A DNA stretch of 64,000 nucleotides from an uncultured Nitrospinota bacterium (GTDB lineage Bacteria; Tectomicrobia; Entotheonellia; J063; CAVPRW01): the NCBI GenBank assembly GCA_963707985.1, contig CAVPRW010000004.1, positions 5,793 to 69,792 on the forward strand, given 5' to 3'. This document shows positions 18,217-38,691 of this stretch, piece after piece. Numbering within the stretch: the first letter of the stretch is position 1; every line of letters begins with the position of its first letter. A program made the translations under genes and the position numbers. The notes under the pieces are model-generated. The model worked only from the letters and a program-made list of their open reading frames with translations. It was not told where the DNA came from and made no database searches.

Positions 18217-20698
18217 ATGGACTTTTACGCGGTGCTGGATCAGGTCCTCGCGCTGCTGCGCCAGCGAGGTCGCGTCTCGTACCGGGCGCTCCAGCGCCAA
18301 TTCGACCTCGATGACGCCTACCTTACCGACCTGAAAGACGCCCTTGTGTTCGCAGAACCCCGTGTGGTGGAAGACGAGGGGCGCGGCCTTGTCTGGGTGG
18401 GGGCACCCCCCGCCGCGGAGCCAGACTCCCGCCAGCAGCCCGAGGTCGAGCGACAGCTCTACACGGTGCTCCTCGCGGTGACAGCGCTGCTCCAGCGCGA
18501 AAAGCGTGTCACCTATCGCACCCTGCACTACATCTTCGGCGTTGACGAGGCGTGCCTGCACGCTGTGCGGGATGAGCTGAGCTTCCGACAGCTGGGGCGC
18601 GAGGACGGCTGCCAGGGGCTTGTCTGGACAGGGGAAGATCCGCCGGATGCGGCCACCGCTACCGCCCTGCGCGCCGCGCCCGACACCGGCATGGCGCCGT
18701 TCCCTGTTCCCTCACGTCCGCCGCTGCATTCCCCAGAGGTGCCTCGACCGCTGAATGGACTGACTCCAGCACTGGATGGGGTGTCGTCTTTCCCCTTGGA
18801 CGACGTAGTGCCACACACGCCAGACGACGTGCCAGTCATCATCCCTGAGTTAGCACGCAGCGCTCCTGACGCGGAACGGCGACAACTCACGGTGCTGTTC
18901 TGTGACCTGGTCGGCTCGACCCAGCTCTCCGGCCAGCTCGACCCCGAAGACCTGCGCGCGGTGGTGCGCGCCTACCAGGAGGCCGCGGCCGAGGTCATCC
19001 AGCCCTACGCGGGCCATATCGCTCAATATCTCGGGGATGGGCTGCTGGTCTATTTTGGCTACCCCGCGGCCCATGAAGACGATGCCCGGCGTGCCGTGCA
19101 TACTGGTCTTGGCATCGTCCAGGCGATCGCCACCCTGAATACCCGTCTGGCGGCACAGTACGGAGTGCCACTCGCCGTGCGGCTCGGCATCCACACCGGC
19201 CCCGTCGTCGTGGGGGAGATGGGTGGGGGTGGGCGGCACGAACACCTGGCGCTCGGGGAAACGCCCAATCTCGCGGCGCGGCTCCAAGCTCTCGCTCCGG
19301 CCAATGCGGTGGTCATCAGCGCCGTGACGGCACGGCTGGTGCGCGGCACCTTTGCCCTGGAAGATCTGGGGACTCACGCGCTCCACGGGGTCGCAGAGCC
19401 GATGGCGCTCAGCCGTGTGCGTGGCTTATTGGCGACGCCCAGCCATGACGAGGAGTTTGTGACTGCCGGAGTGCCTGTCCTGGTGGGCCGGGAAGAGGAA
19501 AGCGGGCTGCTGCGCCGACGCTGGGACCAGAGCAAAGCCGGGTTGGGGCAGGTCGTCTTCGTCAGCGGCGAGGCCGGCATTGGCAAGTCGGCCCTGGTGG
19601 AGCGGCTGCGGGCGCAGGTGCGCGCCGAGGGGTTGCCGCGTATGGCCTTTCGCTGTTCGCCCTATCACACCACCAGTGCCCTCTATCCCATAATCACCCA
19701 CCTCGAGCGCCTGTTGCAGTTTGAGCCGGACGATGCCCCTGCCACCAGGCTGGCCAAATTGGAGGCGGGGCTGCGGCCCTATCGCCTGCCGCTGGCCGAG
19801 GTGGTGCCGCTGTTGGCTGGGCTGCTGTCAGTGCCGCTGCCGGCAGAGCGCTATGCGCCGTTGACGCTGACGCCGCAGCAACAGAAACAGCAGACGCTGG
19901 ACGCGCTGCTGGCGTGGCTCGTGGCGGAGGCCGAGCGACAGCCGGTGCTGCTGGCGTGGGAAGACCTGCACTGGGCCGACCCCACCACGCTGGAGGTGCT
20001 CGGGCTGGTGATCGAGCAGGCGCCCACCGTGCCCATGTTGCACGTGCTGACGTATCGCCCGGAGTTCAGCCCGCCCTGGCCGCCACGCTCCCACATGACC
20101 CCTCTCGTGCTCAACCGCCTGGAGCGCCAGCAGGCCGAGGCACTGATCACCCTGCGGGCGGGAGGCAAAATCCTCCCAGCCGAGCTGGTACAGTACACCG
20201 TGGCCAAAACGGATGGGTGCCGCTGTATGTCGAAGAGCTGACCAAGATGCTGCTGGCTCCACTGCTACGGGAAGAGGCGGACCAGTATGTGCTCACCGGG
20301 CCGCTGCGCACGGTGGCGATTCCGGACACCTTACAGGATGCGCTCATGGCCCGGCTGGATCAGCTCCAGACGGCCAAAGAGGTGGCGCAGCTCGGGGCAG
20401 TGCTGGGGCGGGAGTCTATACGCTCGCCTCCGGGGCGTCTTGCTCCTGCGGCAGACGAGGACGCCACAGGCGGAGGCGGAAACCTGGTTGCAGCGGGCAC
20501 CTCGACATCGCCCGCCGCCAGGAGGCGAAATCACTGGAGCTGCGGGCCGCCACGAGCCTCAGCCGCCTCTGGCAGCAGCAGGGCAAGCGTGCCGAAGCCC
20601 ATGCGCTGCTGGCGCCGATCTACGGCTGGTTCACCGAGGGCTTTGACACCGCCGACCTGCAGGACGCCAAGGCACTGCTGGAGGAGCTGGGCTGCTGA
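18217..20698 (+). pseudogene. Class III nucleotide cyclase-AAA(STAND)-TPR copy 1; duplicated N-terminal head domain, most of the TPR region deleted, several frameshifts
   Basis: [31 protein letters not shown], Walker A GEAGIGKS, Walker B WEDLHW. Frameshift ~20215; LGRE is joined directly to the (E)VYRLRG region at ~20415; ends [22 protein letters not shown]. Confidence 0.85.
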
Positions 20699-20872
20699 TA
20701 AAGCATAGTCAAGTTTGGATTGGGCTTGATCTTGTATTCAGCACCAGGAGAATATGAGGTATCATGGGCTGTCAATCGTCAGCCGACCGTTGTAGAATCG
20801 CCACCTCCAATCCGTCAGCGCTGCGTACAAGGGCACAAGGCAAAGGGCAAAAGGCTGGAGGAAAGGGCAGAG

Positions 20873-21124
20873 ATGGCTGTGAACACCTGGACTGAGCGCG
20901 ACACGGAAAGAGCACAGGAAGTCTGGGGTGCATATCAACGCCAGCATGACATCTCGGATCGGATTGGCCAGACGGCGGGCATTGATCCGGTCAGCGGCCA
21001 GATCTGGTTTGGGGCTTCGGCAAAAGATATCGTGGCCCAGATGGAAGCCGAAGGGATAGCGACTCCCCTCTATTTTGTCCGGGTCGGCACCGACTATTAC
21101 CTGCGGAAAGGCCGCTGCCGGTGA
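20873..21124 (+). CDS. Small DUF5678-like protein (putative antitoxin/partner)
   Basis: 83 aa, AGIDP..IWFG.SAKD..PLYFVRVG; stop overlaps the next start (GTGA). Confidence 0.55.
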   Translation: MAVNTWTERDTERAQEVWGAYQRQHDISDRIGQTAGIDPVSGQIWFGASAKDIVAQMEAEGIATPLYFVRVGTDYYLRKGRCR

Positions 21125-21477
21125 TTGCCGGGACCGTGACGGACAACGGAGTGCCAATCATCATGCTCCTGGTGGCTGGTCAGACGTGGCAGGGTATCAT
21201 CGACACTGGCTTTAATGGAGACCTGGAGCTGCCAGAGGCGTTGCGTGCGACGGTACGGCCACGGTTTATTGGTCGTATATCTTCTGCGCTGGCTGGGGGA
21301 CAGCGCCTTGAGGAAGACGTGTATCTTGTCGATTTCCCCTTCGACGGCCGCACCGTCCATGCGGAGACGACCTTTGTACCAGGCAACGAGATCCTCATAG
21401 GGACGCAACTGTTGCGCCCCTATCGCCTGGAGATACATTTTCCCGAACGGACCGTGCTGCTCGATCGCGTGGCATGA
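21121..21477 (+). CDS. Clan AA (retropepsin-like) aspartic protease
   Basis: IIDTGFNGDLELP catalytic DTG motif and ILIGTQLL; 118 aa single domain. Confidence 0.8.
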   Translation: MIAGTVTDNGVPIIMLLVAGQTWQGIIDTGFNGDLELPEALRATVRPRFIGRISSALAGGQRLEEDVYLVDFPFDGRTVHAETTFVPGNEILIGTQLLRPYRLEIHFPERTVLLDRVA

Positions 21478-21492: not shown

Positions 21493-21563
21493 GCGTGTGT
21501 CGTCATCGGAGTTCCCTTTGCTTTGCCAAGGACGCCATCGTGGAGAATGATAGCCTGCATGGC
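21493..21563 (-). repeat. Orphan inverted copy of the promoter/RBS/start of the antitoxin-like gene at 22253
   Basis: Manual alignment with 22196-22266: 53/71 identical; both read ...(K)(G/D)(T/I)PMTTHA. Confidence 0.75.
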
Positions 21564-21612: not shown

Positions 21613-22164
21613 ATGACCTTCGAGGAGATGCTGGACCAAGCGCTGGCCATGCTCCAGCGCCGCGGCCGCGTGACCTATCGTGCCCTCAAGTTGCAGTTCC
21701 GTCTGGACGACGACCACCTGGAGGCGCTCACGGAGGAGCTCCTCTACGCCCACCCACCCCTCGTCGAGGACGACGGCCGTGGCCTCATCTGGACCGGAGA
21801 AACCCGTCCGACCCCGACGTCAGGATCGCCCCCGGCCCCCGACCAGGAGCGGGCGCCGCTGTCGTATACCCCCGCACATCTGACCGAAAAAATCCTGGAG
21901 GCTCGTCCGAGCCTGGAAGGCGAGCGCAAGCAGGTCACCGTCCTGTTCGCTGATCTCAAGGGCTCCATGGAGTGGCTGGCCGACCGCGACCCGGAAGAAG
22001 CCCGGACCATCCTCGATCCCATCCTTGAACGCATGATAGAGGCTGTGCACCGCTACGAGGGGACTGTCAATCAGGTCATGGGCGATGGGATCATGGCGCT
22101 CTTTGGGGCCCCGATCGCGCATGAAGACCACGCCATCCGGGCCTGCTATGCGGCGCTGGCCATG
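21613..22164 (+). pseudogene. Cyclase-STAND copy 2: 5' fragment only (head domain plus half of the cyclase)
   Basis: [22 protein letters not shown]..., ERKQVTVLFADLKGS, NQVMGDG; homology ends abruptly after CYAALAM. Confidence 0.85.
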
Positions 22165-22203
22165 CCCTCCCCCTTTCCGTGCCCTGGGGTTCCTCGCAAT
22201 ACA

Positions 22204-22212
22204 TGCTATAAT
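22204..22212 (+). promoter_or_regulatory. Extended -10 promoter (TGcTATAAT) for the antitoxin-like/HNH pair
   Basis: TG-N-TATAAT ~40 nt upstream of ATG 22253, with RBS AAAGGA. Confidence 0.55.
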
Positions 22213-22252
22213 GCACCAAAATGGCGTCATTGGTACAGCAAAGGACATCCCT

Positions 22253-22666
22253 ATGACTACACATGCTGTCACGCTACAATTACCGGAGCACGTCTACTTG
22301 CGTCTGCAACTCATTGCCCAGGCAACGCATCAATCGTTTGATGACGTTGCGCTCCGTGCCATCCAAGTCGGTGCTCCTCCCAGTTGGGAAGACGCACCGG
22401 CCGAATTTCAGGCGGACCTCGCCGCGCTCGATCGCCTGGACGATGCCGCATTGTGGCACATCGCGCGCCGTCGCCAGACCGCAGCAGATATGGTGCGGTA
22501 CCAGGAACTCCTTGAGAAGAACGCCAACGACACCCTCTCTGAGGCTGAACGGGCTGAGCTGACCCAATTACGCACTGCTGCCGATCGCTTCATGCTCCGG
22601 AAAGTGCAGGCTGCTGCTTTGCTGCGCTGGCGCGGCCATCACATTCCTCCCGCCGACAAATTATAG
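22253..22666 (+). CDS. Putative antitoxin-like protein (RHH-like N-terminus, LSxxExxEL helix)
   Basis: VTLQLPEHVYLRL...; RYQELLEKN...LSEAERAEL; 7 nt upstream of an HNH gene. Confidence 0.65.
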   Translation: MTTHAVTLQLPEHVYLRLQLIAQATHQSFDDVALRAIQVGAPPSWEDAPAEFQADLAALDRLDDAALWHIARRRQTAADMVRYQELLEKNANDTLSEAERAELTQLRTAADRFMLRKVQAAALLRWRGHHIPPADKL

Positions 22667-22673
22667 AACCTCA

Positions 22674-23099
22674 ATGAGCACATACCTGTCTGCCGAATTG
22701 CGCCGTCGACTGGTTGAAGTGGACGACCACCGTTGTGCCTATTGTCAGACAACCGAAGCCAATACCGGCCAGCCAATGGTTGTAGACCACATCATCCCCG
22801 GAGCACAAGGCGGCGAAACCACGTTTCACAACCTGTGTTTTGCCTGCCGCCGGTGCAATGAATTCAAAGGGCCAACCACCAGGATACAGGAGCCACTTAC
22901 CGGCGAACCGGTGCCCATATTTCACCCCCGTCAGCACGCATGGACCGACCACTTCGCCTGGGATGCAGCTGGGATACGTCTTATAGGGCTGACAGCTATT
23001 GGTCGGGCCACCATTATCGCCCTCAACATCAATAACGAGTTCATCGTTGATGCGCGACGTCGCTGGGTCGGTGTCGGCTGGCATCCGCCGGCGCTGTGA
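22674..23099 (+). CDS. HNH endonuclease (zinc-binding)
   Basis: RCAYC, VDHIIP..QGG, NLCFACRRCNEFK, IFHPRQHAWTDHF, WHPP. Confidence 0.88.
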   Translation: MSTYLSAELRRRLVEVDDHRCAYCQTTEANTGQPMVVDHIIPGAQGGETTFHNLCFACRRCNEFKGPTTRIQEPLTGEPVPIFHPRQHAWTDHFAWDAAGIRLIGLTAIGRATIIALNINNEFIVDARRRWVGVGWHPPAL

Positions 23100-23120
23100 A
23101 CAATAGCGCCGAAAAATACA

Positions 23121-26100
23121 TCACGGCTCCTCCCCTAAGGTATCGAGCAACGCCTTGGCCTCTTGCAGGTCCGTCGGTGTCAAACCCCTCGGTGAACCAG
23201 CCGTAGATCGGCGCCAGCAGCGCATGGGCTTCGGCCTGCTTGCCCTGTTGCTGCCAGAGGCGACTGAGGCTCATGGCGGCCCGCAGCTCCAGCGATTTCG
23301 CCTCCTGGCGGCGGGCGACGTCCAGGGCCCGCTGCAACCAGGTTTCCGCCTCCGCCTGCGACGTCCCCGGCTGCCGCAGGAGCAAGACGCCCCGCAGGCG
23401 ACAGACTTCCGCTTCCCACCAGCGTTCCTCATGCTGCTCCACCAGGGTGTGGGCCTCGACCAGCGCCTGAAGGCCGTCTTCCGGGTGGCCCAGGTGGGCA
23501 GAGACGTCCGCCAGCAAGGTGCAATAGTATGCGACGAGCAGAGGTGCCTCAGTGGCTCGGTAGGCGGCGATCCCCTGGCGGACCTGGCTCAGCCCCTCCT
23601 CGCCCTGGCCCTGCATGGCCAGCGCCCACCCGCGCAAGATCGTTCCCGCGGCCGCCCAGAATGGAAAGCCCTGCTCGATCGAGAGCGCGACGGCGGCCTC
23701 TGCCTGCTCGTGCACGGCTGGCACGTCCCAGCGAAACTGATAGACGTAGGCCGCCCAACACCGCGCACGCGCCAGACTATAAGGATGCGGCAGCTCGTGC
23801 GCCAACGCCAGGGCCTCGTGGAGGCGGGCCAGGGCTTGCTCCGGATACCCCAGTAACCAGAGGGTCACAGCGGCATGGCCTCGGCAGGCAACACCCGGAT
23901 CCTGGCCCATACGGAATACCGGAGCACGGTGCTGGTCTGGTGTGTCGCGTGCGATGGCTTCCTCCAGGTGCTGGCGGGCAACAGGCAACGCGCCCAGGCA
24001 GAACGACGTAAACCCGAGGGCAGAGTGGGCGACGACCGTGAGCGCGGGGTCGTCGGCACGTTGCGCCAGGCGCAGCAAGGTTTCGCCGATCTCCCGCGCT
24101 GTGTGCAACTGTAGCCGTCCTACATAAAACCGGTACAGACCATACAGGACCGGGACCAGCTCTGGGGTCTCGCCCACCTGCTGACACAACGCGTGTGCCT
24201 GGATGTAGGCGTGCTCCACCTCGGGCGCTCCCTGTCCTTTGGCCATCACCAGTGCTGCGCCGAGGGCTGTGTACAGGGTTAAGGCTTGCTGGGTATGCTC
24301 AGGCGTCTCTGGCAGGGTCGTGAGCAGCTCGATCCCGGTGGTGCAAGTGGCTGATGGCTTCCACATGGGCCGAGCGGTCACTGGCCTGTTGGCCCGCCCG
24401 CAGCCAGTAGACCACCGCCTGCTCGGCGCAGCCCGCCGCGGTGTAGTGCTGGGCGACCAGCTCTGGTTGCGTCGCGACGGTCTCCGGGAACTGCGCCTCC
24501 AACGCCTGGGCAATACGCTGGTGGTACTGCTGGCGGGTGCTCCGCAACAACGACTGATAGGCCACGTCCTGGATGAGCGCATGCTTGAACGTGTAGGTGG
24601 CCTGCGGCGGCACCCCCCGCTGGTACAGGAACTCCGCTGCCACCAACTGGTGCAGTCCCTGCTGCACGATCCCCTCCTCCCACGGGGCCACGGCGCGCAG
24701 CAGCGCGTAGGAAAACTCGCGCCCCAGGGTGGCCCCGAGTTGGGCCAGGGCCTTCACCGCCGCGAGGCGGTCGAGCCGCGCCATGAGCGAGTCGTGCAGC
24801 GTGGCGGGAATGGCCAGCGGGTGCAGGGGCCCGGTCAGCGCATAGCGCTCGTCCCGCTCCTGGAGCAGTCCCGACTCCAGCACCATCTTGGTCAATTCCT
24901 CGACAAACAGGGGCACCCCATCGGTCTTGGCCACGATCTGCTCGACCACCTCGGGAGGCAACACCTTGCCGTGGGCCACCTGGCGAATCACCTCCACGGC
25001 CTGTCGTCGGGGCAAGCGGTTGACCGTGAGCTGGGTGAGATGGGCCCGCCCCGTCCAGGGCGGGCTGAAGTCCGGCCGACAGGTGAACAGCGTCAGGATG
25101 CGGGCGGTGGGGCCTTGATCGACCAGGAGGCTGAGCAGCTCGAGCGTGGACGGATCGACCCAGTGCAGGTCTTCCATGACAAAGAGCACGGGCTGCTGGG
25201 CGGCGATGCGCAGCAGGATCGTCAACAGGACGTGGAGGGTCTGCTGCTTCTGCTGCTCAGGCGACACCGTCACGGGCGCATAGTCCGCCGGCAGCGGCAG
25301 GGAGAGGAGGGCGGCAAAGAGGGGCACGGCCTCCGCCAGTGGCAGGCCATACTGCACCAGGAACCCCTCCAGTTTGCCCACCTTCTGCTGGGGCGACTCC
25401 TCCCGGTCGAAGCGCAGGACCACCCGCTCCAGCAGGTCGATCAGCGGATACAAGGCGGTGTGCTGGTGGTAGGGCGAACACTGACACGGGGTGAGCCAGG
25501 CCCGGGGCTCGGCGGCCACCTGGTCCGTCAGCACCTGCACCAGGCGCGATTTGCCGATGCCGGCTTCGCCGCTGAGGAGCACGACCTGTCCGAGGCCGTC
25601 TTTGACCTGCGCCCAGCGCTCGAGCAGCACCCCGATTTCCTGCTCCCGACCCACCAGCGGGGTCCACCCGGTACTGCTGGCGGCTTCCAGGCGACTGCGG
25701 GCCATACTCTCATAGAGCACGCGATAGACCGCCAGCGGCTGCGCCAGGCCTTTCAGGAGCGGCGTGCCGAACGGCTGGCAGGCAAAGAACCCACCGAGGA
25801 GCTGAAAGGTCGCCGCACTGATCACCAGGGTATTGGGGGCGGCGAGGCCTTGCAGGCGGGCCGCCACGTTGGGGGTCTCGCCGAGGGCCAGCTGTTCCTG
25901 GCGCGCCCCGTCCCCCACGTCGCCCACCACCACCAGCCCGGTATGGATCCCCAGGCGCACGGCCAGATGCACCTCTCGCTCCGGCCCCAGGGAGGTATGG
26001 AGTTGTCCCATGGCCTCGACGATCCCCAGCCCGGCCCGCACCGCCCGCTGGGCGTCATCTTCGTGCGCCAGGGGGTAGCCGAAGTAGACCAGGAGACCAT

Positions 26101-26575
26101 CACCGAGGTACTGGGCGATATGCCCCTCGAAGCGGGCGATCACTTTGGCGCAGGTGGCTTGATAGGCCTGCACCACCTGGCGCAGCTCTTCCGGGTCGAG
26201 CTGGCTCGCCAGGCGCGTCGAGTCCACCAGATCACAGAACAGGACGGTGAGCTGCCGGCGTTCGGCATCAGGAGGGTGAGGTGTGGTGGGTGGGGAAGCC
26301 CCCTGGGGGGAGTAATCTTTCTGGCTGACAGGCGGTGGGGGGTATTGGGGTGCTGGAGGAGCTAGCGTCTGGGGCGCTGCTGTGTCATCGGTCCAGCGTA
26401 AGCCACGACCCGCGTCCTCGACCACCTGTGGATGCGCGTAGAGGAGTTCGTCCTTGAGGACCGCCAGCTGCTCGTCGTCCAGGTGGAACTGGAGCTTCAG
26501 CGCGCTATAGGTCACCCGGCCTCGGCGCTGGAGGAGGGCCACGACTTGGTCGAGGACATCATAAAAATCCATCAT
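23121..26575 (-). CDS. Cyclase-AAA(STAND)-TPR copy 3, full length, with frameshifts near 24340 and 23172
   Basis: Head domain, [51 protein letters not shown] helices, C-terminal [15 protein letters not shown]. Confidence 0.88.
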
Positions 26576-26717
26576 GGCTCCTCCAGCCGTGTCAGCCAGT
26601 GGGGGTCTCGTCGGATGCGGTAGCCGCCAGACGCGCCCCTGTCCACCCCTGTGGTTACGTTGCATTCCTGTGGACCGTGTATTATCCCGCCTGCGCCAAC
26701 GTCACTTCCGCTTGGAG

Positions 26718-26777
26718 CAGCCAGAGAGGTCATCTCCATGGCGCGGTACCGCGCCATGGAGATGACCTCTCTGGCTG
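26718..26777. repeat. Perfect 60-bp palindrome with no spacer
   Basis: CAGCCAGAGAGGTCATCTCCATGGCGCGGT|ACCGCGCCATGGAGATGACCTCTCTGGCTG; the 30-bp arms are exact reverse complements. Confidence 0.97.
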
Positions 26778-26871: not shown

Positions 26872-27279
26872 CTATCTGATTCCCAGCCGGATCAAAAACC
26901 GGCGTGTAGTCAACGCATGGGTCGAGTTGAGCGCGAGAGCCGCCACCGCTGCCCGGCCAACTGGCGTCAAGCCCTGTATTTCGCCGGTGTCGCGGTCCAG
27001 CACGAGGTGCTCAGACCATGGTTGCGTGCGCGGGTTGAAGAGCGGCACCGTCTCGCCGGTCACAGGATCAGCGGCCTCGGTTTTCACATGCTTGTGCAGA
27101 TTACACGAGCGGCAGCACAACGCGAGATTATCTATGCTGGTGCGACCACCCCTGGCCTCTGGGATGATGTGATCGGTCTCCAAGGGCGTGCTGCTCGCGG
27201 CTTCGGGATAGCCACAGTACTCACAGCGATAGCGGGCGCGGCGTGCAACCTCGGCGTGATGGCTTTCCGCTGCGGCCAT
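26872..27279 (-). CDS. HNH endonuclease
   Basis: RCEYC, TDHIIP..RGG, NLALCCRSCNLHK, LFNPRTQPWSEH, GLTPVGRA. Confidence 0.88.
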   Translation of the reverse strand: MAAAESHHAEVARRARYRCEYCGYPEAASSTPLETDHIIPEARGGRTSIDNLALCCRSCNLHKHVKTEAADPVTGETVPLFNPRTQPWSEHLVLDRDTGEIQGLTPVGRAAVAALALNSTHALTTRRFLIRLGIR

Positions 27280-27288
27280 GGTCAGCCT

Positions 27289-27639
27289 TCAACGCCCTAA
27301 AGCAGCGGCCAGGCGTTGGAGGCTTTCGACTTCGAGGGCATCGGCTTCCGACATCAGGGCGTGCAGCTCATGCGCTTCGTTATGAGACAAGGCTCGAGAT
27401 TTGCGTACCTGAAGGAGCGCGCTCAGCCGTTTGGCTTTCTCTGGCTCTATGCGCTGAAAGCCAAGCGAATCCAGGGCGGCAGCAAGCAGCATGTGGGGTT
27501 CAGCCACGGGAGCTGACGGACTCGCTTCGGGAAAGAGTCTGTCCAGAATCCACTGCTCGGGTGACTTGTGGGCTGAGCCAGCCTCAGCGGCAATCCGCTC
27601 ATAGGTCGTATCGGGGAGATGTAAGATGATCTCTTTCAT
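27289..27639 (-). CDS. Putative antitoxin-like protein upstream of HNH
   Basis: IILHLPDTTYERI (RHH-like); RLSALLQVRKSRALSHNEAHEL resembles the 22253 protein. Confidence 0.6.
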   Translation of the reverse strand: MKEIILHLPDTTYERIAAEAGSAHKSPEQWILDRLFPEASPSAPVAEPHMLLAAALDSLGFQRIEPEKAKRLSALLQVRKSRALSHNEAHELHALMSEADALEVESLQRLAAALGR

Positions 27640-27687
27640 GACGTCCACCGTGACCGCAGTTTCTCCACCTAAGAGGCGAGCTTGATT

Positions 27688-28813: not shown

Positions 28814-28854
28814 AATTCGTCTCGGGTATGTGTTCAACGGTCAAAAATACGGGT

Positions 28855-28889: not shown

Positions 28890-28892
28890 GCC

Positions 28893-30518
28893 TTATTTCT
28901 CTATCCAGACATGTTCCCATTTCAGCATCACCTGCGCCGTGCTTGCAGGCAGGAAAGGCCCCGCTTCGGTGCGCACTTTGTCGCTCACCAGATAGCTCCA
29001 CCGCGCCCAGAAGAGCGGCACGTATGGCTCTTCGTGGGTCAGCAGAAACTTCTCCATCTGGCGCAGGGTCTGCTGGCGCTTGTCTCGATCTAACTCGCAC
29101 CGTTGTTGGTCGAGTAACTTCAGGAACGCGGGGTTTTGCCAACGCGTGAAGTTTCGCGATCCGGGGCCGTAGATCGCGGTGACGTAGTCGTCAGGATCAT
29201 CGATGTTATAGGCATAGCCCCAACTCCCCAGGTCATAGTCGCCTGAGACCCAGGTGTTCACGGCCGTAGGAGCGTCAACGAGCTTGATTTCGATCTCCAG
29301 GCCCAAGTTCCTTCGCATCTGCGCCACCCATAGCTGCGCCACATCGGGCCAATACAATATATTGGGAGCGGTCAGCACTCGCTTGCCCAATTTCGCGGGG
29401 GGATCGTAGCCAGCCTCCTTGAGCAACGCCTTGGCGGCCTCGATATCCTTCAGCTTGGGCTGGCTGTAACCGGGGAGTTTGGCCAGTTCTTCGTCGCTGC
29501 TGCCCCACCAGGCCCCAGGCGGGAATGGCGCCCCCAGCAGATAATGTCCCGAGCCAAAGGCCTTTTGCAGCTCATAGCGGTCCGTGGCGAGCCGCAGCGC
29601 CTTGATGAGGCGCAGATCCTTCCAGGGCTCGCGCTCCACATTCCCGAAGAAATGCTCCACGTTACTTGGGGGCTGCCAGTAGACGCTGTATTTCCCCTTC
29701 AAGTCCATTTCGAGCTTCAGCACGTCGTCGACCTCGAGCCCGGTGATGGCCGTCGTCAACTGGATCTTGCCTGCCTTGATGGCTGCGGCTGCCGTGCCCT
29801 TATCGTTGATGACGACGATGCTCAGTGCGTCGAGATAGGGACGCCCCTTCTTGAAATAGTTCGGGTTCTTTTCATGATGCACCGAATCACCTCGGCGTGC
29901 CGACTTGATCTTGAACGGGCCGCTGCCCACAATATTGTCCCAGATGTTGATATCTACTCCCGCTTCAATGATGTGTTTGGGGACGATTTTCATGTAGTCG
30001 ACGGCCAGCAGCTGGAGAAAAGCTGGCGCGGGAAAATTCAGCTCGATCTTGACCGTGTTACGATCGACCGGCTCAACCACTTTGATGTAGGGCCGCAGTA
30101 GTCCGACGCGAGGTCGGGGTTTTCCCGGCTCGATCATACGCTTCAGGCTAAAAACCACATCCTCGGCGGTGAGATCCTTGCCATCCCACCACTTGACATT
30201 CTCATGCAGGTAGAAGGTGTAGATGAGGCCGTCGCTCGATACCTCCCAGCGCTGCGCCAGGTCGCCCGTGATCTCGGTGGGGTTGAGTGGGTTGAACTCG
30301 ACGATCTGGTTATAGAGGGGACTGAACGCCGCCAAAGGGCCGATGGTGCCGGCGAGGTGAGGGTCCCAGACTTCGGGATAAAACACATTGAGTACCGTTG
30401 CATGCCCTCCGTACACCGGTGCCGACGCCGCTGTACTCGCCCAGAAGAGCGTCATGAGGACCATCAGGAGTGCCACCAGTCCCAGGAACACTCGCAACTT
30501 CCCTTGGCATCTCAACAT
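28893..30518 (-). CDS. Peptide/nickel ABC transporter substrate-binding protein (family 5)
   Basis: Signal peptide; GDLAQRWEVSSDGLIYTFYL, TAEDVVFS, VGSGPF, GRPYLD; RBS AGGAGG favours ATG 30518. Confidence 0.9.
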   Translation of the reverse strand: MLRCQGKLRVFLGLVALLMVLMTLFWASTAASAPVYGGHATVLNVFYPEVWDPHLAGTIGPLAAFSPLYNQIVEFNPLNPTEITGDLAQRWEVSSDGLIYTFYLHENVKWWDGKDLTAEDVVFSLKRMIEPGKPRPRVGLLRPYIKVVEPVDRNTVKIELNFPAPAFLQLLAVDYMKIVPKHIIEAGVDINIWDNIVGSGPFKIKSARRGDSVHHEKNPNYFKKGRPYLDALSIVVINDKGTAAAAIKAGKIQLTTAITGLEVDDVLKLEMDLKGKYSVYWQPPSNVEHFFGNVEREPWKDLRLIKALRLATDRYELQKAFGSGHYLLGAPFPPGAWWGSSDEELAKLPGYSQPKLKDIEAAKALLKEAGYDPPAKLGKRVLTAPNILYWPDVAQLWVAQMRRNLGLEIEIKLVDAPTAVNTWVSGDYDLGSWGYAYNIDDPDDYVTAIYGPGSRNFTRWQNPAFLKLLDQQRCELDRDKRQQTLRQMEKFLLTHEEPYVPLFWARWSYLVSDKVRTEAGPFLPASTAQVMLKWEHVWIEK

Positions 30519-30922
30519 GCTCATCCTCCTATCCGGAGAAATTCACGCGTTCACGCTCATCAGGGTCTAAAAACTTCGATTGTGATCAGTGGAGAGAGAT
30601 GACGGTACGGATAGGGGTGCCTTCCTCCCCTCAGGAGGAGCTTACAGGCGTACCAGGAGTTGCGGCCGTGTCACGAAGCGGGATGGCGTCGCCAGGTCGG
30701 TTCGGGCGGAACACCGTGAGACTGGATAGAGACAACAAACGGCATCCATTGGGCGCTTCCTAACGCATCGTCAACCCAAGCGATAGGCCTATCCTCGCAG
30801 CCCTGCAGGCGCAGCCAGCCATGCAAATGAGAGCCAAGCCACCATCGAAGTGAGCCGCTTGTCAACTCCGCTACAGGCTTGGGGTGTGCGTCAAAGTTTG
30901 ATACTGGTGGCGAATTCACGTC

Positions 30923-31423
30923 ATGCGCCTCGTAAAGGGGGGTTGGATTTGGGAGGATGGCCCCCTCGGCCGCCCTGCTGATCCACTCCCCCCAACCGCT
31001 GCCCCACTGTCAACCGCACCTTCTGTCAGAGACACGGCAGAAGCGCCACTCGCCTACACGCTGCCGTACCTTACCGAGCGGATTCTCGCCTCCCGCGCCG
31101 CCCTCGAAGACGAACGCAAGCAGGTGACCGTCCTGTTTGCTGATCTGAATGGCTGGCTCGTCCTCCAGGCCGGCTCGGTCTCGTACGGCCAGGCAACAGT
31201 CGAAGCGCGCTACGGCGCCGCCATGCCCCTGGCCGACGAGCTCGGGATGCGCCCGCTCCAGGCGCACTGTCACTGTGGCCTCGGCACCCTATACGCCACG
31301 ACTGGCCAGCCAGAGCATGCCCGTGCTGAATTATCGATCGCGATTGAGCTGTACCGCACCATGGAGATGAGCTTCTGGCTGCCCCAGGCGGAGGCGGCAC
31401 TGGCGCGGGTGGAGGGGCGGTGA
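30923..31423 (+). pseudogene. Cyclase-STAND copy 4: in-frame patchwork mini-gene
   Basis: APLAYTLPYLTERIL..ERKQVTVLFADL (cyclase start) + GWLVLQAGSVSYGQAT (post-Walker A piece) + LADELGMRPLQAHCH..FWLPQAEAALA (C-terminus) in one 166-aa ORF. Confidence 0.75.
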
Positions 31424-34061
31424 TGGACTTTTATACGGTGCTCGATCAGGTGGTCGCCCTGCTGCGCCGCCGCGGGCGGGTGTCCTATCGGGCGCTGAAG
31501 CGACAATTTGCCCTGGATGATGAGCTGCTCGCCGACCTCACGGCTGAACTGCGCTATGCGCGCTATCCGATCGTCGAGGACGATGACCAAGGCCTGGTTT
31601 GGACTGGGGAGACGGCGCCACCATCGGAGCACACTCCTCCACTGCCTCGGCCCGAAGCCGAGCACGCCCCACACTCCGACCGGCCACCGGCCGAACCGCA
31701 TGCACCAGAGGCCGAACGCCGCCAGCTCACGGTGCTGTTCTGCGACCTGGTGGACTCCACCGTACTGGCCAGTCAGCTTGACCCGGAAGAGCTCCGCGAG
31801 ATGGTGCGGGCATATCAAAGCACGTGCGCCGCTGTTATTCAGCGCTATGACGGGCATATTGCGCAGTATCTCGGCGATGGTTTGCTCGTCTACTTTGGCT
31901 ATCCCCAGGCGCACGAAGATGACGCGCAGCGGGCGGTGCGGGCTGGGCTCGGGATGGTGGAGGCCATGGGACAACTCAGTACCCGCCTGGGGCAGGAGCG
32001 AGGGGTATCCCTAGCCGTACGCCTGGACATCCATACCGGTCAGGTGGTCGTGGGCGAGATCGGAGGTGGGGCGAAGCATGAACAGTTGGCCCTCGGCGAG
32101 ACGCCTAACCTCGCCGCCCGCCTGCAAGGGATTGCGGCGCCCAATACGCTGGTGATCAGTGCCGCGACCTCACAGCTGCTCGGCGGCTTCTTTGCCTGCC
32201 AGTCGCTCGGCACCCCGCTCCTGAAAGGCTTCGCTCAGCCGCTAGAGGTCTATCAGGTGCGGTATGAGAGTATGGCTCGTAGTCGTCTGGAAGCCGCCGG
32301 CAGCTCCAGCCTGACCCCACTCGTGGGCCGGGAGCAGGAAGTAGGGCTGTTGCTGGAGCGCTGGGCGCAGGTCAAGGAGGGGCTCGGGCAAGTGGTGCTG
32401 CTCAGCGGCGAAGCCGGCATCGGCAAATCGCGTCTCGTGCAGGTACTGACGGCACAGGTGGCCACTGAGCCCCAGGCCTGGCTGACGCCGTGTCAATGTT
32501 CGCCCTACTACCAGAATACCGCGTTGTATCCCATGATCGATCTGCTGGAGCGGGTGGCGCTGCGCTTCGAGCGGGAGGAATCGTCGCCGCAGAAGCTGAA
32601 CAAACTGGAGGGATTCCTCGTGCAGTATGGCCTGCCGCTGGCCGAGACCGTGCCCCTCTTCGCCGCCCTCCTCTCCCTGCTGCGCAGGTGTTGGAGGCCC
32701 GCTTTCCCGAGCTCTGTGAGGCCCAGCCCGAGCTGCTGGCCCAGCACTACACGGCGGCAGGCTGTGTCGAGCAGGCGGTGCGCTACTGGCAGCGGGCGGG
32801 CCAACACGCCAGCGACCGCTCAGCCAATGTGGAAGCCATCAGCCACCTGAGCACAGGGATCGAGCTGCTCAAGACGCTCCCAGAGACGCCCGAGCGTATC
32901 CAGCACGCCGTGACCCTGCACATCGCCCTCGGCGCGGCATTGCAGATGGCGAAAGGGCTCGCAGCACCCGAAGTGGAGCACGCCTACACCCAGGCACGCG
33001 CGTTGTGTCAGCAGGTGGGCGAGACCCCAGAGCTTATCCCGGTCCTGTATGGTCTGTGGCGGTTTTATACCGTACGGTTGCAGTTGCACACAGCACGAGA
33101 TCTCGGCGAAACACTGTTGCGCCTGGCACAACGTGCCCACGACCCCATGCTCTCCGTCGTTGCCCACCATGCCCTCGGATGGACGAGGTTCTGTTTTGGC
33201 GCGTTGCCGGCTGCCCGCCAGCACCTGGAGGAAGGCATCGCACACTATACGCCAGACCAGCGCACGGCGTTGGCATTCCGCATGGGCCAAGACCCGGGTA
33301 TTGCCTGCCGAGCCTTGGCCGCGATGACCCTCTGGTTACTGGGGTACCCGGAGCAAGCCCTGGCCCGCCTCCATGATGCCCTGGCGTTGGCACACGCGCT
33401 GTCGCATGCCTATAGTCTGGCGTTTGCGCAGTGGTTGGCGGCCATCGTCTATCAGTTTCGCCGGGACGTGCCAGCCGCGCACGAGCAGGCAGAGGCCGCC
33501 GTCGCGCTCTCGACCGAGCAGGGATTTCCACAGTGGGCGGCCTATGGAACGAGCTTACGTGGGTGGGCGCTGGCCATGCAGGGCCAGGGTGAGGAGGGGC
33601 TGGCGCAGGTCCGCCAGGGAATCGCCGCCTGGCGGGCCACCGGGGCGGCGTTGTTGGTCCCATACTTGTATACCTTGCTGGCGGAAGTCTGTGCCCATCT
33701 GGGCCACATGGAAGATGGCCTCCGGGCGCTGGCCGAGGCCCACACCCTGGTGGAGCAGCATGAGGAACGCTGGTGGGAAGCGGAAATCTCTCGCCTCCGG
33801 GGCGTCATGCTCCTGCGGCAGCCGGGGACGCTGCCGGCGGAGGCGGAGACCTCCTTTCATCAGGCCCTGGCCGTGGCCCGCCGCCAGGAGGCCAAGTCGC
33901 TGGAGCTGCGGGCCGCCATGAGCCTCGCTCGCCTGTGGCGGCAACAAGGCAAGCGGGATGAAGCGCGCGAGCTGCTGGCACCCATCTACGCCTGGTTCAC
34001 CGAGGGCTTTGACACCGCCGACCTCCAGGAGGCGAAGGCCTTGCTCGCGGAGTTGTCGTGA
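31420..34061 (+). pseudogene. Cyclase-AAA-TPR copy 5; ~260-codon internal deletion with frameshift at 32680
   Basis: Head, cyclase and Walker A are present. LLSL is joined to AQVLEARFP, so Walker B and the helical linker present in copies 3 and 6 are missing. TPR region and C-terminus intact. Confidence 0.85.
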
Positions 34062-34069: not shown

Positions 34070-34315
34070 CTACACCAGATCACGGTCAGGCTGAACACCC
34101 TCAAGCTGCAAATCCTTGAGATCGATACCAAAGGCTTGGGCTTGCTGCTGCATGAGGGAAACAACCCTATGAAAACCCTGGACATACCCGTCGTAGAACT
34201 CCTGCGCGGCTCGATCGCTCTGCTTCTCCCGCTCCACTACCGCGGCCAGCGCATACTCCTTGATGAGTCCCCCCAGGTCAAAGAGGTAGTTTTTAACTGT
34301 ATCGTCGTCTTTCAT
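34070..34315 (-). CDS. Putative immunity protein (81 aa)
   Basis: FYDGYVQGFHRVVSLMQQQAQAFGIDLKDLQL pattern recalled from RHS/CDI immunity genes; start overlaps the upstream stop (TAATG). Confidence 0.55.
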   Translation of the reverse strand: MKDDDTVKNYLFDLGGLIKEYALAAVVEREKQSDRAAQEFYDGYVQGFHRVVSLMQQQAQAFGIDLKDLQLEGVQPDRDLV

Positions 34316-34611
34316 TACTGGATACCCCTTTCTTGCAGTATCCCCCGCATGACATCGGCCAACTCCTGGTTGCGGATCAGATCCTGCTGCCAGTGCCGTA
34401 GGAGCCCCGGCTGAGCACGAGGACTCTTCCTGACCCAATCTTGGACGAACCTCTCCGGGCTGCTCATCTTCTGCCGATGCAGCGCCGCCTGTCTCTCATA
34501 GCTCCGCAACGCCCGCTGAATTTCCTCCACGCTTTTCCCCTGGTATAGCCGCAGGAGACCTGCATGCCGCCCTCCCTGCTTGGCAACCTCATAAGCGCTC
34601 CATTCCGCCAC
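34315..34611 (-). CDS. Free-standing polymorphic-toxin-like domain (~98 aa, AYEVAKQGGRHAG...)
   Basis: RBS GGGAGG then GTG (34611; TTG 34617 alternative); the motif pattern is recalled from RHS C-terminal toxin domains. Confidence 0.55.
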   Translation of the reverse strand: MAEWSAYEVAKQGGRHAGLLRLYQGKSVEEIQRALRSYERQAALHRQKMSSPERFVQDWVRKSPRAQPGLLRHWQQDLIRNQELADVMRGILQERGIQ

Positions 34612-34669
34612 ATCCAACCTCCCCCCATCCAGAAGAGCGCCTGAGGTTGATATTCACCACTCCAGTAGA

Positions 34670-34957
34670 TCACTCCCCCGTCGTCGGTTGCCGGGCACCA
34701 ATGTTTGTGGTCGGTAAGTCGCGGCCTTCAAGTGCTGCGTAGAGATCACGTACGCCTAGCCCGAGCTCTTGCGCAAAAAATCCAAGGCTGATCTCCCCCT
34801 CCTCGAATCGCCGATAGAGTTGTTGCAGGCGATGCTCAAAGCCCAGGTCGATCAATTCGGCCAGAAACTGAGCGATCCCTTCACTGCCCTCCGCTGCCTT
34901 GCGGCGCTCCGCCGCCCGTAGAATCTCCTCCTTCACCGGCACCACGGCTCTCGGCAC
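34670..34957 (-). CDS. UPF0175-like HTH protein (putative antitoxin/regulator)
   Basis: LYRRFEEGEISLGFFAQELGLGVRDLY motif; RBS GGAGGTG. Confidence 0.65.
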   Translation of the reverse strand: MPRAVVPVKEEILRAAERRKAAEGSEGIAQFLAELIDLGFEHRLQQLYRRFEEGEISLGFFAQELGLGVRDLYAALEGRDLPTTNIGARQPTTGE

Positions 34958-35305: not shown

Positions 35306-38300
35306 ATGATGGATTATGAAGCGATCCTGTCACAGATCGTCGCCCTCCTGCAGCGGGAAGGCCGCATCGCCTATCGTGTCCTCAAGCGACGGCTGCAGCT
35401 CGATGATGACCTGCTGGAAGATCTGAAGGATGATCTGATCTATGCGAAGAAGCTTGCCAGCGATGAGGAGGGGAAGGTGCTGGTGTGGGCTGGTGCACAG
35501 GCGGAACCATCACCCCCAAGCGGCTCCCCCTCGCCCGAAGCTCCCCCTCTAGAGGCCGAACGACGTCAGCTCACCGTGCTGTTTTGTGACCTGGTGGACT
35601 CGACCGAGCTGGCCAGCCAGCTCGACCCCGAAGAGTGGCGCGAGGTGGTGCGGGCCTATCAAGAGACGTGCGCCAAGGTGATTGCCCGCTATGAGGGGGA
35701 GATCGCCCAGTATCTCGGCGATGGCCTGCTGGTCTACTTCGGCTACCCCCTGGCGCACGAGGATGACGCCCGGCGGGCGGTGCGCGCCGGCCTCGGGATG
35801 GTGGAGGCCATGGGGCAACTCAATGCCCGCCTGGCGCGCGAGCACGGGGTGCAACTAGCCGTGCGTCTGGGCATCCATACGGGTCAGGTGGTCGTGGGCG
35901 AGATCGGGGGCGGGGCGAAGCATGAGCAGTTGGCCCTCGGCGAGACGCCCAATGTCGCCGCCCGCCTGCAAGGGATCGCTGCGCCCAATACGCTGGTGAT
36001 CAGTGCCGCGACGCTTCACCTGCTCAGCGGCTTCTTTGCCTGCCAGTCGCTCGGCACCCCACTCCTGAAAGGCGTCACCCAGCCGCTGGAGGTCTATCGG
36101 GTGTTGTATGAGAGTATGGCCCGCAGCCGCCTGGAAGCGGCCGGGAGCGCTAGTCTGACCCCGCTGGTGGGCCGCGAGCAGGAGGTGGCGTTACTGCGGG
36201 AGCGCTGGGCACAGGTCAAGGACGGTCTCGGAGCAAGTGGTGCTGCTCAGCGGCGAGGCGGGCATCGGCAAATCGCGCCTGGTGCAGGGGCTGACCGAAC
36301 AGGTGGCCAGCGAGCCCCAGGCTTGGCTGACCCCATGCCAATGTTCGCCCTATCATCAGAACAGCGCCTTGTATCCGCTGATCGACCTGCTGGAGCGGGT
36401 GGTGCTGCGCTTTGATCGGGACGAGCCCCCCCAGCAGAAGCTTCGCAAGCTGGAGGGGTTCGTGGTGCAGTATGGCCTGCCGCTGGCAGAGGCCGTGTTC
36501 CTCTTGGCCACCCTCCTCTCGCTCCCACTCAGCACCGACTATGCCCCACTGGCCTTCTCGCCCGAGCAGCAGAAGCAGAAGACCCTGCAAGCCCTCCTGA
36601 CGATCCTGCTGCGTATTGCCGCCCAGCAGCCCGTGCTCTTCGTCATGGAAGACCTGCATTGGATTGATCCGTCCACGCTGGAGCTACTCACCCTCCTGGT
36701 GGACCAAGGCCCCACCGCCCGCATCCTGGCGCTCTTCACCTGCCGGCCGGACTTCAGCCCGCCCTGGACGGGGCGGGCCCATCTCACCCAGATGACGCTC
36801 AACCGCTTGCCCCGACGACAGGCCGTGGAGGTGATCCGCCAGGCGGCCCACGGCAAGGTGCTACCTCCCGAGGTGGTCGAGCAGATCGTGGCCAAGACCG
36901 ATGGGGTGCCCCTGTTTGTGGAGGAATTGACCAAGATGGTGCTGGAGTCGGGACTGCTCCAGGAGCGGGACGAGCGCTATGAGCTGACCGGGCCCCTGCA
37001 CCCGCTGGCCATTCCCGCCACCCTGCACGACTCGCTGATGGCACGGCTCGATCGCTTGGCATCGGTGAAGGGCCTGGCGCAACTCGGGGCGACGCTGGGG
37101 CGCGAGTTTGCCTATGACCTGCTACAGGCCGTCGCCCCCTGTGACGAGGGCACCTTGCAACGGGGGCTGCACCAGCTGGTGGAGGCGGAGTTCCTCTACC
37201 AGCAGGGGCTGCCGCCGCAGGCGACGTACCGCTTCAAGCATGCCCTGATTCAGGATGCCGCCTATCAGTCCGTACTGCGGAGCACCCGCCAGCAGCACCA
37301 TCAGCGCATTGCCCAGGTGTTAGAGACACGGTTCCCGGAGACTGCCGAGACGCAACCAGAGCTGGTGGCGCACCACTACACCGAGGCCGGGCGCACAGAG
37401 CAGGCCATCCCTTATTGGCAGCGGGCAGGCCAGCGCGCGGTTGAGCGCTCGGCCAATCTGGAAGCGGTGGCACACCTCACGAAAGGGCTGGAGGTGCTCG
37501 CCACCCTGCCAGACACCCCCGAGCGCGCTCAGCAGGAGCTGCTCGTGCAGACCACCATGGGCCCAGCGTTGATGGCTACCAAGGGCTATGGGTCCCCTGA
37601 GGTGTTACGCACCTATGCCCGGGCGCGAGAGCTCTGCCAGCAGGTAGGGGAGACCCCGCAGCTCTTCCAGGTGCTACGGGGATTGTGGTACTTCTACCTC
37701 ATACGGCTGGAGTTACGGACAGCGCGGGAGCTGGGGGAGCAGCTCCTCACCCTGGCCCAGCATGTCGGCGACTCGGCGCTGCTCTTGGAGTCCCACTATG
37801 CCTTAGGGAACACCTTGAACTATCTGGGCGAGTTCGCCGCTGCCCGGGCATACTTGGAGCAGGGCATCGCCCTCTACGACCCCCAGCGGCACCGTGCCCA
37901 TGCCTTCCGCTACGGGCAGGACCCCGGGGTGGCTTGCCGATCCTATGCCGCCGTGACCCTGTGGTGGCTGGGCTATCCAGACCAAGCCCTGCAGAGGAGC
38001 CACGAGGCGCTGACGCTGGCCCGGGAGGTGGCACACCCCTTCAGCCTGGCATACGTTCTGTTCTTTGCCGCCCTTCTCCATCACTTCCGCCGGGAGGGGC
38101 AACTAACCCAGGAGCGGGCCGAGGAAGCAGGTCGCGCTCTCTAGCGAGCATGGGTTTCCGCAGCTGTTGGCGGGGGGAAGATTCTTCCAGGGCTGGGCGT
38201 TGGTCGAGCAGGGACAGGGAGCGGAGGGGATGGCACAGATGCATCAGGGCATGGCCGCCTGGCGGGCGACGGGGGCCGAGGTGGTTTGGCCGTATTATCT

Positions 38301-38691
38301 TGCCCTGCTGGCCGAGGCCGATGCTAAGGGGGGACAGGTCGAGGAAAGTCTGACGCTGGTGGCCGAGGCGCTGGCGGCGGCAAACAACAGGGAGGAGCGC
38401 CGCTGGGACGCCGAGCTGTATCGGCTCAAGGGCGAGCTGCTGCTGCAGGATTCGGCAGCCCACCAGGTGGAGGCGGAGGAGAGTTTGGAGCAGGCCCTCG
38501 CCGTGGCCCGCCGCCAGGAGGCCAAGTCGTTGGAGCTGCGGGCCGCCATGAGCCTCAGTCGCCTCTGGCAGCAGCAGGGCAAGCGAGCCGGAGCCCATGC
38601 GCTGTTGGCGCCGATCTACGGTTGGTTCACCGAAGGATTTGACACGGCGGATCTACGAGAGGCCAGGGCATTGCTGGAGGAGCTCGCGTAA
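35306..38691 (+). CDS. Cyclase-AAA(STAND)-TPR copy 6, full length, with frameshifts near 36230 and 38130
   Basis: Same domain order and motifs as copy 3; extended -10 TGaTATAAT at 35207-35215. Confidence 0.88.

Follow-up and report, generated by a model that had tools for sequence, protein, structure and literature searches.

A cluster of broken cyclase-STAND-TPR paralogues with small gene modules in its gaps, from an uncultured Nitrospinota bacterium

Introduction

The 64,000-nt stretch of DNA analysed here (the window; contig C4, positions 5793-69792, of an uncultured Nitrospinota bacterium, assembly GCA_963707985.1) carries at 18.2-38.7 kb six members of one gene family, in which a class III nucleotide cyclase is joined to a STAND (signal transduction ATPase with numerous domains) switch and a tetratricopeptide repeat (TPR) region, and a small gene module sits in every gap between them (open reading frames (ORFs), Pfam, tblastn). 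Is this interleaved array a working immune-type locus, whose sensors switch on cyclases and whose gaps supply toxic effectors, as a preliminary description of the sequence had proposed, or did it arise in some other way? We favor, at a probability of roughly 60%, a decaying, recombining cluster of paralogues in a genome very rich in toxin-antitoxin (TA) genes, in which addiction-type modules have lodged and been kept, and not a sensor-effector system. Read in this way, the region is a further example of the known birth-and-death turnover of a paralogue cluster in a TA-rich genome.

The family is among the largest uncharacterised STAND families of soil and sediment bacteria and is related to the cyclase/LuxR genes of Mycobacterium tuberculosis. 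Its turnover is on display in this genome, which holds ~40 loci, half of them dead, together with mosaic copies, a fast-evolving TPR part and coupled pairs of two subfamilies, termed X-type and Y-type. The locus also carries a caution, namely that an NLR-like (nucleotide-binding, leucine-rich repeat) look plus toxin-like neighbours do not make a defence system, and it offers two leads of comparative interest: a possible enrichment of addiction modules inside arrays, and recurrent TumAE neighbours.

Results and Discussion

Architecture of an intact family member

Intact family members exist elsewhere in the genome, and we judged the six copies against one of them, a 1143-aa paralogue encoded by 1143 codons at C45:2291-5722, using tblastn maps and DNA alignment. 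Its domain order is winged helix, proline-rich linker of variable sequence, class III cyclase, AAA_16 ATPase and TPR. The N-terminal winged helix spans ~65 residues and is modelled by AlphaFold with a predicted local distance difference test (pLDDT) score of 90.6 and the layout H-b-H-H-b-b; its top Foldseek matches are all winged-helix domains, at E values of just 0.009-0.1. The cyclase domain belongs to PF00211 (Guanylate_cyc; E 2e-18 and 8e-18), and both its metal-binding Asp pair and its transition-state N..R pair align with those of the solved CyaB (3r5g) and Cya2 (2w01) structures. Because the purine-specifying positions are Gln and Leu, the product of the cyclase cannot be named. Rv0386 of M. 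tuberculosis likewise has a non-canonical purine-specifying pair.

The ATPase is a MalT-like STAND domain (AAA_16, E 8e-24; Pfam), and it is followed by a TPR part of ~450 residues with matches to TPR_12, TPR_10 and TPR_MalT that lie below or near the Pfam cut-offs. A Pfam scan of the C-terminal 513 residues returned TPR families only and no LuxR-type helix-turn-helix. The family falls outside TIGR03903 (TOMM system kinase/cyclase fusion), which it matches at 523.7 bits versus a cut-off of 705.75; the match leaves out the kinase part, as it starts only at position 282 of the model. A class III cyclase with its catalytic residues, coupled to a P-loop STAND ATPase with TPR, is thus present in the family, and the NLR-like reading of its architecture as effector, STAND switch and TPR sensor is supported. 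In an intact member, ligand binding to the TPR array would free the ATPase switch, and ATP-driven oligomerisation would then pair two cyclase domains to yield a cyclic nucleotide.

None of the six copies is intact

The preliminary description had placed six members of this family in the window, and their coordinates, order and orientation hold up in ORFs, Pfam (Guanylate_cyc, AAA_16 and TPR) and tblastn. None of the six is intact. A single uninterrupted frame of ~1050-1250 codons is missing from every copy and from a seventh related gene in the window, and because all six are pseudogenes or fragments, they are unable to act as ligand-gated cyclases.

Copy 1 (18217-20689, + strand) retains a duplicated N-terminal winged helix, the cyclase and AAA_16 (Pfam), and is disrupted by at least two frameshifts (tblastn frames 1, 3 and 2 versus the intact paralogue) and by a ~440-codon deletion that fuses the ATPase to the final 60 codons. 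Copy 2 (21613-22218, + strand) amounts to the first 202 codons of an X-type gene, with 77% identity to residues 1-202 of the intact X-type protein of locus L002, which served as the tblastn reference for copies 2 and 4. Copy 3 (23145-26572, - strand) is a Y-type pseudogene with 1-nt insertions at ~24343 and ~23174 (DNA alignment to C45:2291-5722), and now reads as ORFs 24299-26665 and 23041-24582. Copy 4 (30923-31423, + strand) is a 166-codon X-type chimera with two internal deletions, in which residues ~64-123 are joined to ~1073-1145; its stop and the beginning of copy 5 overlap in GTGA (31420-31423). Copy 5 (31420-34061, + strand), a Y-type pseudogene whose first 300 nt are 92-93% identical to L002, has suffered an out-of-frame loss of codons ~423-684 that removes most of the ATPase and the ATPase's winged helix. 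Copy 6 (35309-38691, + strand) is a pseudogene that combines a Y-type core with a different TPR type and bears 1-nt insertions at 36233 and ~38129. Programmed FRAMESHIFTING was ruled out as an account of these lesions, since their position and kind differ between copies and kilobase deletions are included.

The family bears a disproportionate share of the lesions: 14.5 kb of its sequence contain at least 9, compared to 3 in 28.9 kb of other window genes (p = 0.004). Across the genome, four tblastn queries define 68 family intervals, ~40 of them near full length and ~18-20 of them single ORFs of at least 950 codons; this definition replaced a ten-query version that drew unrelated kinase and regulator matches. 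Roughly half of the near-full-length loci are broken (19/39), whereas in most other multicopy families the share is 0-27%. Other families with broken members include the ABC (ATP-binding cassette) substrate-binding proteins (11/56), a family of ~415 aa (7/26) and one of ~765 aa (4/22). The pseudogene load of the genome seems unusually high.

A ~70-bp inverted repeat (21493-21563 and 22196-22266) flanks copy 2, and mirrored peptides appear in the opposite-strand ORFs. At locus L088 an X-type gene lies beside antiA, the gene that neighbours copy 2 in the window, in the opposite orientation; for this reason an inversion between the two bracketing repeats may have reversed the orientation of copy 2.

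Mosaic copies and a fast-evolving sensor part

Copies in the window have their closest relatives in different places. In the tree, the core protein of copy 3 is 99% identical to that of the C45 gene, copy 5 is closest to a gene on contig C17, and the core of copy 1 falls in a different clade from copies 3 and 5. At their tails, copies 1 and 3 share 93-94% identity. A related metagenome-assembled genome (MAG) carries orthologues of the clade of copies 3 and 5. On this tree, simple local amplification does not account for the array. The sister clade of copies 3 and 5 consists of Mycobacteriaceae and Nocardiaceae genes (L004, L006, L008-L012, L017, L019, L020, L023, L024, L062 and L077; support 100/99) with 53-68% protein identity to copy 3, and this placement suggests that the family has been transferred between distant phyla.

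Identity also changes along single copies. Copy 3 is 55-66% identical to the C45 gene over the first 300 nt, 94-99% identical over nt 296-2285 and 87-94% identical in the TPR part, and a 200-nt block at 96% stands inside a background of 81-89% between copies 6 and 3. The TPR region of copy 6 is 78-83% identical to locus L058 and just 62-67% identical to copy 3. Such mosaic identity points to gene conversion between dispersed paralogues.

In the cyclase-ATPase core, ratios of non-synonymous to synonymous substitution rates (dN/dS) are 0.16-0.22, and in the TPR part they rise to 0.35-0.53, so that the sensor part evolves fastest; at least 3 TPR types occur in the family. The dN/dS values are the same for broken-versus-intact and intact-versus-intact pairs, and inactivation is therefore recent. 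With respect to the diversifying sensor locus of the preliminary description, the diversification is borne out by the TPR part, by its several types and by the mosaic copies, while the functional locus is lost with the breakage of every copy.

The X-type and Y-type subfamilies form a head-to-tail, translationally coupled pair with overlapping stop and start that is intact at L002:6372-13433; adjacent X-type and Y-type stretches, cited for their adjacency alone, also occur at C9:89468-95640 and C17:189605-196254. Copies 4 and 5 are the wreck of such a coupled pair, and proteins of the two types could work together.

The gaps hold mutually unrelated small modules

Each gap does contain a small gene module, as had been proposed; of the TA identities assigned to these genes, only the HNH assignments are solid, and the two HNH genes are the only firmly identified genes in the gaps. 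Gap 1 (20720-21477, + strand) holds a small ORF (likely 20867-21124) that overlaps a 118-aa retropepsin-like ORF (21121-21477). Neither finds a match in Pfam even at E<=5, which removes the earlier DUF5678-like label, and the supposed aspartic protease comes down to one sub-threshold match, to TIGR03698 (E 1.5e-8; 34.9 bits versus a cut-off of 57). Two paralogues of the retropepsin-like ORF lie on contig C48 (178594-182625) beside an HNH gene and with no cyclase gene there; small modules therefore also cluster together away from the family. Kinship of the retropepsin-like pair with a gag-asp protease pair found beside an antiA homologue on a Promineofilaceae contig was considered and rejected, as the two have no similarity.

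In gap 2 (22253-23099, + strand), antiA (22253-22666, 137 aa) precedes HNH_A (22674-23099, 141 aa; Pfam HNH, E 6e-11). These two genes and copy 3 converge, with ~45 nt between their 3' ends. The antiA family is uncharacterised and conserved to an unusual degree: more than 1150 homologues at 67-94% identity are spread across phyla (Entotheonella, Anaerolineae, Desulfonema and others), and in most contexts examined antiA is directly followed by an HNH gene. Its model is all-alpha (pLDDT 90); a fold search of the PDB gave nothing below E = 1, and it has no Pfam family. Gap 3a (26872-27699, - strand) holds HNH_B (26872-27279; Pfam HNH, E 2.4e-16), with 41% identity to HNH_A. Upstream of it lies the partner gene antiB (27289-27699), which is unique in the genome and shares 30% identity with antiA in its N-terminal part. 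Gap 4 (34070-34957, - strand) contains three small co-oriented ORFs (34670-34957, 34315-34617 and 34070-34315) that are unique in the genome except for one distant paralogue of the first.

The names given earlier to the HNH partners (antitoxins) and to the gap 4 genes (a triple of helix-turn-helix, toxin and immunity genes) found no backing: antiA and antiB match nothing in Pfam, PADLOC, PHROGs or NCBIfam, and the triple matches nothing in Pfam, PADLOC or PHROGs, NCBIfam having been run on its immunity-like ORF (34070-34438) alone, again with no match. The genes of antiA/HNH_A and antiB/HNH_B are small, adjacent, co-oriented and 7-9 nt apart, and the antiA-HNH pairing is kept in Desulfonema, Entotheonella and other MAGs. 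We regard both as putative TA pairs; the ribbon-helix-helix-like N-terminus of the partner is a sequence impression.

Taken together, the gaps hold two HNH genes with their partners, a weak retropepsin-like pair and an orphan triple, all mutually unrelated. Pfam found no cyclic nucleotide-binding or other nucleotide-sensing domain in any gap protein, nor a CARF, SAVED or TIR-type domain, and the genome encodes just 7 cyclic nucleotide-binding proteins (PF00027), none adjoining an array. The gap modules are not effectors of the cyclases.

Association of TA modules with the family

The genome is TA-rich, with 48 PIN, 16 HicA, 18 MNT, 11 PemK and 7 ParE matches and at least 170 modules in total. 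We compared module positions with family loci in three censuses: an a-priori census of 92 modules from Pfam TA families; a broad jackhmmer census of 170 modules, whose seeds came mostly from near the loci and which is therefore ascertainment-biased upward; and a third census seeded from Pfam coordinates and far-away ORFs only. Within 1, 2, 5 and 10 kb of family loci the a-priori census counts 3, 4, 8 and 11 modules, compared to 1.4, 2.7, 5.9 and 10.6 expected (p = 0.17-0.49). The broad census, taken outside the window, counts 11, 12, 15 and 20 within 1, 2, 3 and 5 kb, compared to 2.7, 5, 7 and 10.9 expected (p <= 0.006). In the far-seeded census the ratio is 2.2 at 1 kb (p = 0.11), falling to 1.0 at 3 kb. 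For housekeeping multicopy families the ratios at 1 kb are mostly 0-1.8, with two exceptions of 3.3 and 5.8.

The check for neighbourhood enrichment suggested in the preliminary description thus gave a divided answer. Outer 3-kb flanks display no excess (3 modules versus 3.2 expected in the a-priori census; 9 versus 5.3 in the broad one). Among the 19 inter-copy gaps outside the window, of which ~0.9-1.3 would be expected to hold a module across the censuses, 2 do so for the a-priori families (p = 0.20), and a significant excess appears with the broad census only. Pfam confirms DUF5615/DUF433, TumE, PIN and MNT in four of the TA-holding gaps and a weak DUF2283 in a fifth. The TA excess is at most modest and confined to array interiors.

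Ten TA labels assigned by eye were checked in Pfam: 4 matched the family that the label had given (scoring above the cut-off for DUF5615, DUF433 and TumE and below it for DUF2283), 2 had weak matches to other DUFs and 4 went unconfirmed, so that Fisher tests on by-eye labels are soft. A TA module lies within 2 kb of 13 of the 24 broken full-length loci and of 3 of the 18 intact ones (p = 0.02); with the window excluded, the counts are 8 of 19 and 3 of 18 (p = 0.15). In the flanks of 79 related cyclase-STAND loci from other genomes (1.13 Mb), we found no homologue of any window gap module and just 7 TA-like places. The idea that the spacers supply toxic effectors is not supported, given the absence of nucleotide-sensing domains and the absence of these modules beside related loci.

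Explanations for the interleaved array

Under the reading that we prefer, the family turns over through the birth and death of its members, gene conversion among dispersed copies and the deletion of DNA between repeats. The modules in the gaps would be independent selfish or addiction-type elements, lodged and retained in dispensable, recombination-prone DNA, and a deletion between neighbouring copies that drops a module may be counter-selected, as in chromosomal integron arrays. Several points weigh against this reading. Its soft point is the anti-deletion step, which is drawn by analogy with integrons. For copies 3 and 6, the evidence of single-base frameshifts comes from the assembly. In the broad census, 5 of the 19 inter-copy gaps outside the window hold a module compared to 1.3 expected (p = 0.008), which exceeds random scatter, although this census is biased by ascertainment and the a-priori families give p = 0.2. 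Three of the 6 TumE-family pairs in the genome have a family locus within 3 kb (p ~0.001, post hoc), and at L058 a 4-nt overlap joins the TumE stop to the start codon of a copy-6-like cyclase. Finally, the unit of antiA-HNH and copy 3 is collinear in L091, an independent metagenome contig (window 22227-26283, 90% nucleotide identity), and in L088 (78%).

The gap excess is the starting point for the rival that fares best. If recombination between paralogues deletes the DNA between them, gaps that contain an addiction module would be the ones that persist, and the modules would stabilise the array. Copies 1, 4 and 5 are deletion chimeras, copies are mosaic, and inter-copy gaps, though not the outer flanks, perhaps hold 2-5 times the expected number of TA modules (p from 0.2 down to 0.001 according to census). 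There is also a precedent: chromosomal integrons are enriched in TA cassettes, whose excision kills the cell (PMC13108822). Sedentary chromosomal integrons resemble the array in that dispensable, repeat-rich units are interleaved with addiction modules, the enrichment lies inside and a deletion penalty is proposed; here, in contrast, no integrase or attC machinery, for which the array was not searched, is implicated, the repeats are 3-kb paralogous genes, the enrichment is weak and the TA pairs are putative, so the analogy is one of layout only. Moreover, 2 of the 4 gaps in the window are flanked by copies in inverted orientation, between which recombination produces inversions and not deletions, the enrichment loses significance with a-priori families (p = 0.2), and the window modules are putative, not proven, TA pairs. 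We consider survivorship of this kind unlikely as the full account, though deserving of some weight. The shared insertion hotspot that the preliminary description had offered as an alternative finds modest support across the genome: the gap enrichment speaks for it, as does a slot upstream of the copy-3 orthologue that holds a HEPN/MNT pair in L091 and HNH_B/antiB with a 60-bp palindrome in the window, so that one slot is filled by different modules in related genomes, whereas the a-priori test (p = 0.20) does not.

A second rival would make the frameshifts errors of consensus, with copies 3 and 6 really intact and working. The 8.28-Mb genome, in 48 contigs with completeness of 95% and contamination of 6.1%, is MAG-like and probably metagenome-derived, the insertions come from the assembly, and the equal dN/dS of broken copies and intact pairs also fits. 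However, the four 1-nt insertions of copies 3 and 6 lie outside homopolymer runs, the lesions gather in the family instead of being evenly spread, and the breakage share varies between gene families from 0 to 49%. Many TA genes in the genome carry in-frame stop codons, that is, substitutions and not indels. In the independently assembled L091, an in-frame stop (NRLPRR*) and the loss of 22 codons disrupt the copy-3 orthologue, and the HNH gene beside it likewise contains an in-frame stop. Copies 1, 2, 4 and 5 show kilobase-scale losses. Because the insertions avoid homopolymers, the lesions are concentrated, breakage depends on the family, and stops occur in TA genes and in L091, the decay of the copies is taken as real and recurrent, and an assembly artefact is distinctly unlikely.

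We give slightly less credence still to a more elaborate proposal, in which such arrays would resemble eukaryotic NLR clusters: broken copies would form a silent archive from which sensor and core segments pass to intact genes by conversion, addiction modules in the gaps (HNH pairs, TumAE and other TA pairs) would guard the recombination-prone array against collapse, and the HNH nucleases might trigger the breaks for conversion. It can cite the 2-kb tract, 96-99% identical, that copy 3 shares with the intact C45 gene.

A specific partnership, in which TumA/TumE or antiA-HNH pairs would be functionally tied to certain family genes, for instance through co-transcription linking control of the toxin to expression of the cyclase, strikes us as very unlikely. 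TumA/TumE pairs lie near family genes in the window (16534-17306) and at C35:10261-10934, C42:17654-18040 and L058:9352-10022, and the overlap at L058 together with these recurrent neighbours hints at a specific link to the TumAE family. The proximity test, however, was made post hoc over ~15 families, and in the window livF separates the pair from copy 1. For antiA-HNH, the unit with copy 3 is retained in L088, where the pair again lies between two family genes, and in L091; conservation at 78-90% nucleotide identity can nevertheless be explained as plain synteny, and more distant antiA-HNH pairs (Entotheonella, Desulfonema and another MAG) have unrelated neighbours and no cyclase.

The view of the array as a functioning NLR-like immune locus, with cyclases switched on by TPR sensors and TA-like gap modules acting as toxic effectors, can scarcely be upheld: its architecture is like that of antiviral STAND proteins, its TPR part evolves fastest, its gaps are possibly TA-enriched and PADLOC matches its cyclase to PycC (E 6e-20) and its HNH genes to PtuB (E 7e-13), but all six copies are broken, the gap proteins have none of the signal-sensing domains sought in Pfam, the genome's few cyclic nucleotide-binding proteins adjoin no array, the modules are not kept beside relatives and no Avs or other STAND defence model in PADLOC matched the intact paralogue.

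Relation to described systems

The closest described relatives of the family are the mclx genes of M. tuberculosis (Rv0386, Rv1358 and Rv2488c), which likewise combine a class III cyclase, a STAND-type ATPase and TPR, are multicopy and are pseudogenised. In natural strains, mclx genes have repeatedly been pseudogenised by frameshift indels (PMC4452763). The family is not a member of mclx, as it lacks the C-terminal LuxR helix-turn-helix; it has an N-terminal winged helix instead, and its expansion, to ~40 loci with copies in arrays, is far larger. MalT and other LAL-type STAND regulators share with the family an AAA_16 P-loop switch and, behind it, a sensor made of helical repeats (sub-threshold TPR_MalT, E 2.3e-8), and a logic of ligand-gated oligomerisation may be common to both; the output is transcription activation in MalT/LAL and a cyclase here.

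Avs, bNACHT and Pycsar systems resemble the family in the order effector-STAND-TPR, in a fast sensor part and in a PycC-like cyclase domain. The family differs from Avs and Pycsar in that there is no Avs model match, no partner effector nearby and no defence-island evidence, and its copies are dead. The PADLOC check proposed in the preliminary description thus turned up domain-level matches only, to PycC for the cyclase and to PtuB for the HNH genes. Assignment to Pycsar fails because PycC matches the cyclase domain only and no gap ORF has a cyclic nucleotide-binding domain; for Avs, PADLOC on the intact paralogue gave PycC plus two matches near E 0.01; and for CBASS, the cyclase is of class III (PF00211) and not a CD-NTase, and the PADLOC output contained no CBASS model. 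The resemblance of the gap HNH genes to Septu PtuB is likewise at the level of the domain, since their neighbour is a 137-aa all-alpha protein and not the PtuA ATPase.

Other features of the window

The TumA-like/TumE pair of the window (16534-17306, + strand) lies between livG and livF, 0.9 kb upstream of copy 1 and outside the stretch covered by the preliminary description. The TumE-TumA family has been validated experimentally as toxin-antitoxin (PMC10584680). Like that family, the window pair has a small upstream partner, and its TumE belongs to PF20126 (68.6 bits versus a cut-off of 23.4); in NCBIfam the TumE match is sub-threshold, as is that of TumA (39.9 versus a cut-off of 100).

The lineage is sparsely sampled, with one same-genus genome available for comparison, and no match was found in that genome; the two class-level matches are on contigs that stop short of livG/livF. 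Our own gene caller chooses wrong-strand ORFs at the HNH genes and copy 3 and was used for small-ORF sampling only. Rfam found no RNA family in the window.

The seventh family-related gene (54786-57761, + strand) has AAA_16-TPR with no cyclase match and is split over tblastn frames 3, 1 and 3. Gap 3b (27817-30524, - strand) is the remnant of a dpp-type ABC operon, identified from ORF translations without a family library: dppA is intact (28893-30524), dppB is frameshifted (28124-28837 and 27817-28134) and dppCDF are absent. A livK-like substrate-binding gene at the array edge (38756-40059) is in three ORF pieces. The whole ~22-kb stretch, including the frameshifted livK-like and dppB genes, looks like decaying DNA; intact genes occupy 1-18 kb and 40-54 kb of the window. 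The 60-bp palindrome (26718-26777; inverted repeat I11) is perfect and spacerless, is centred on GGTACC, and separates the 3' end of HNH_B from the start of copy 3.

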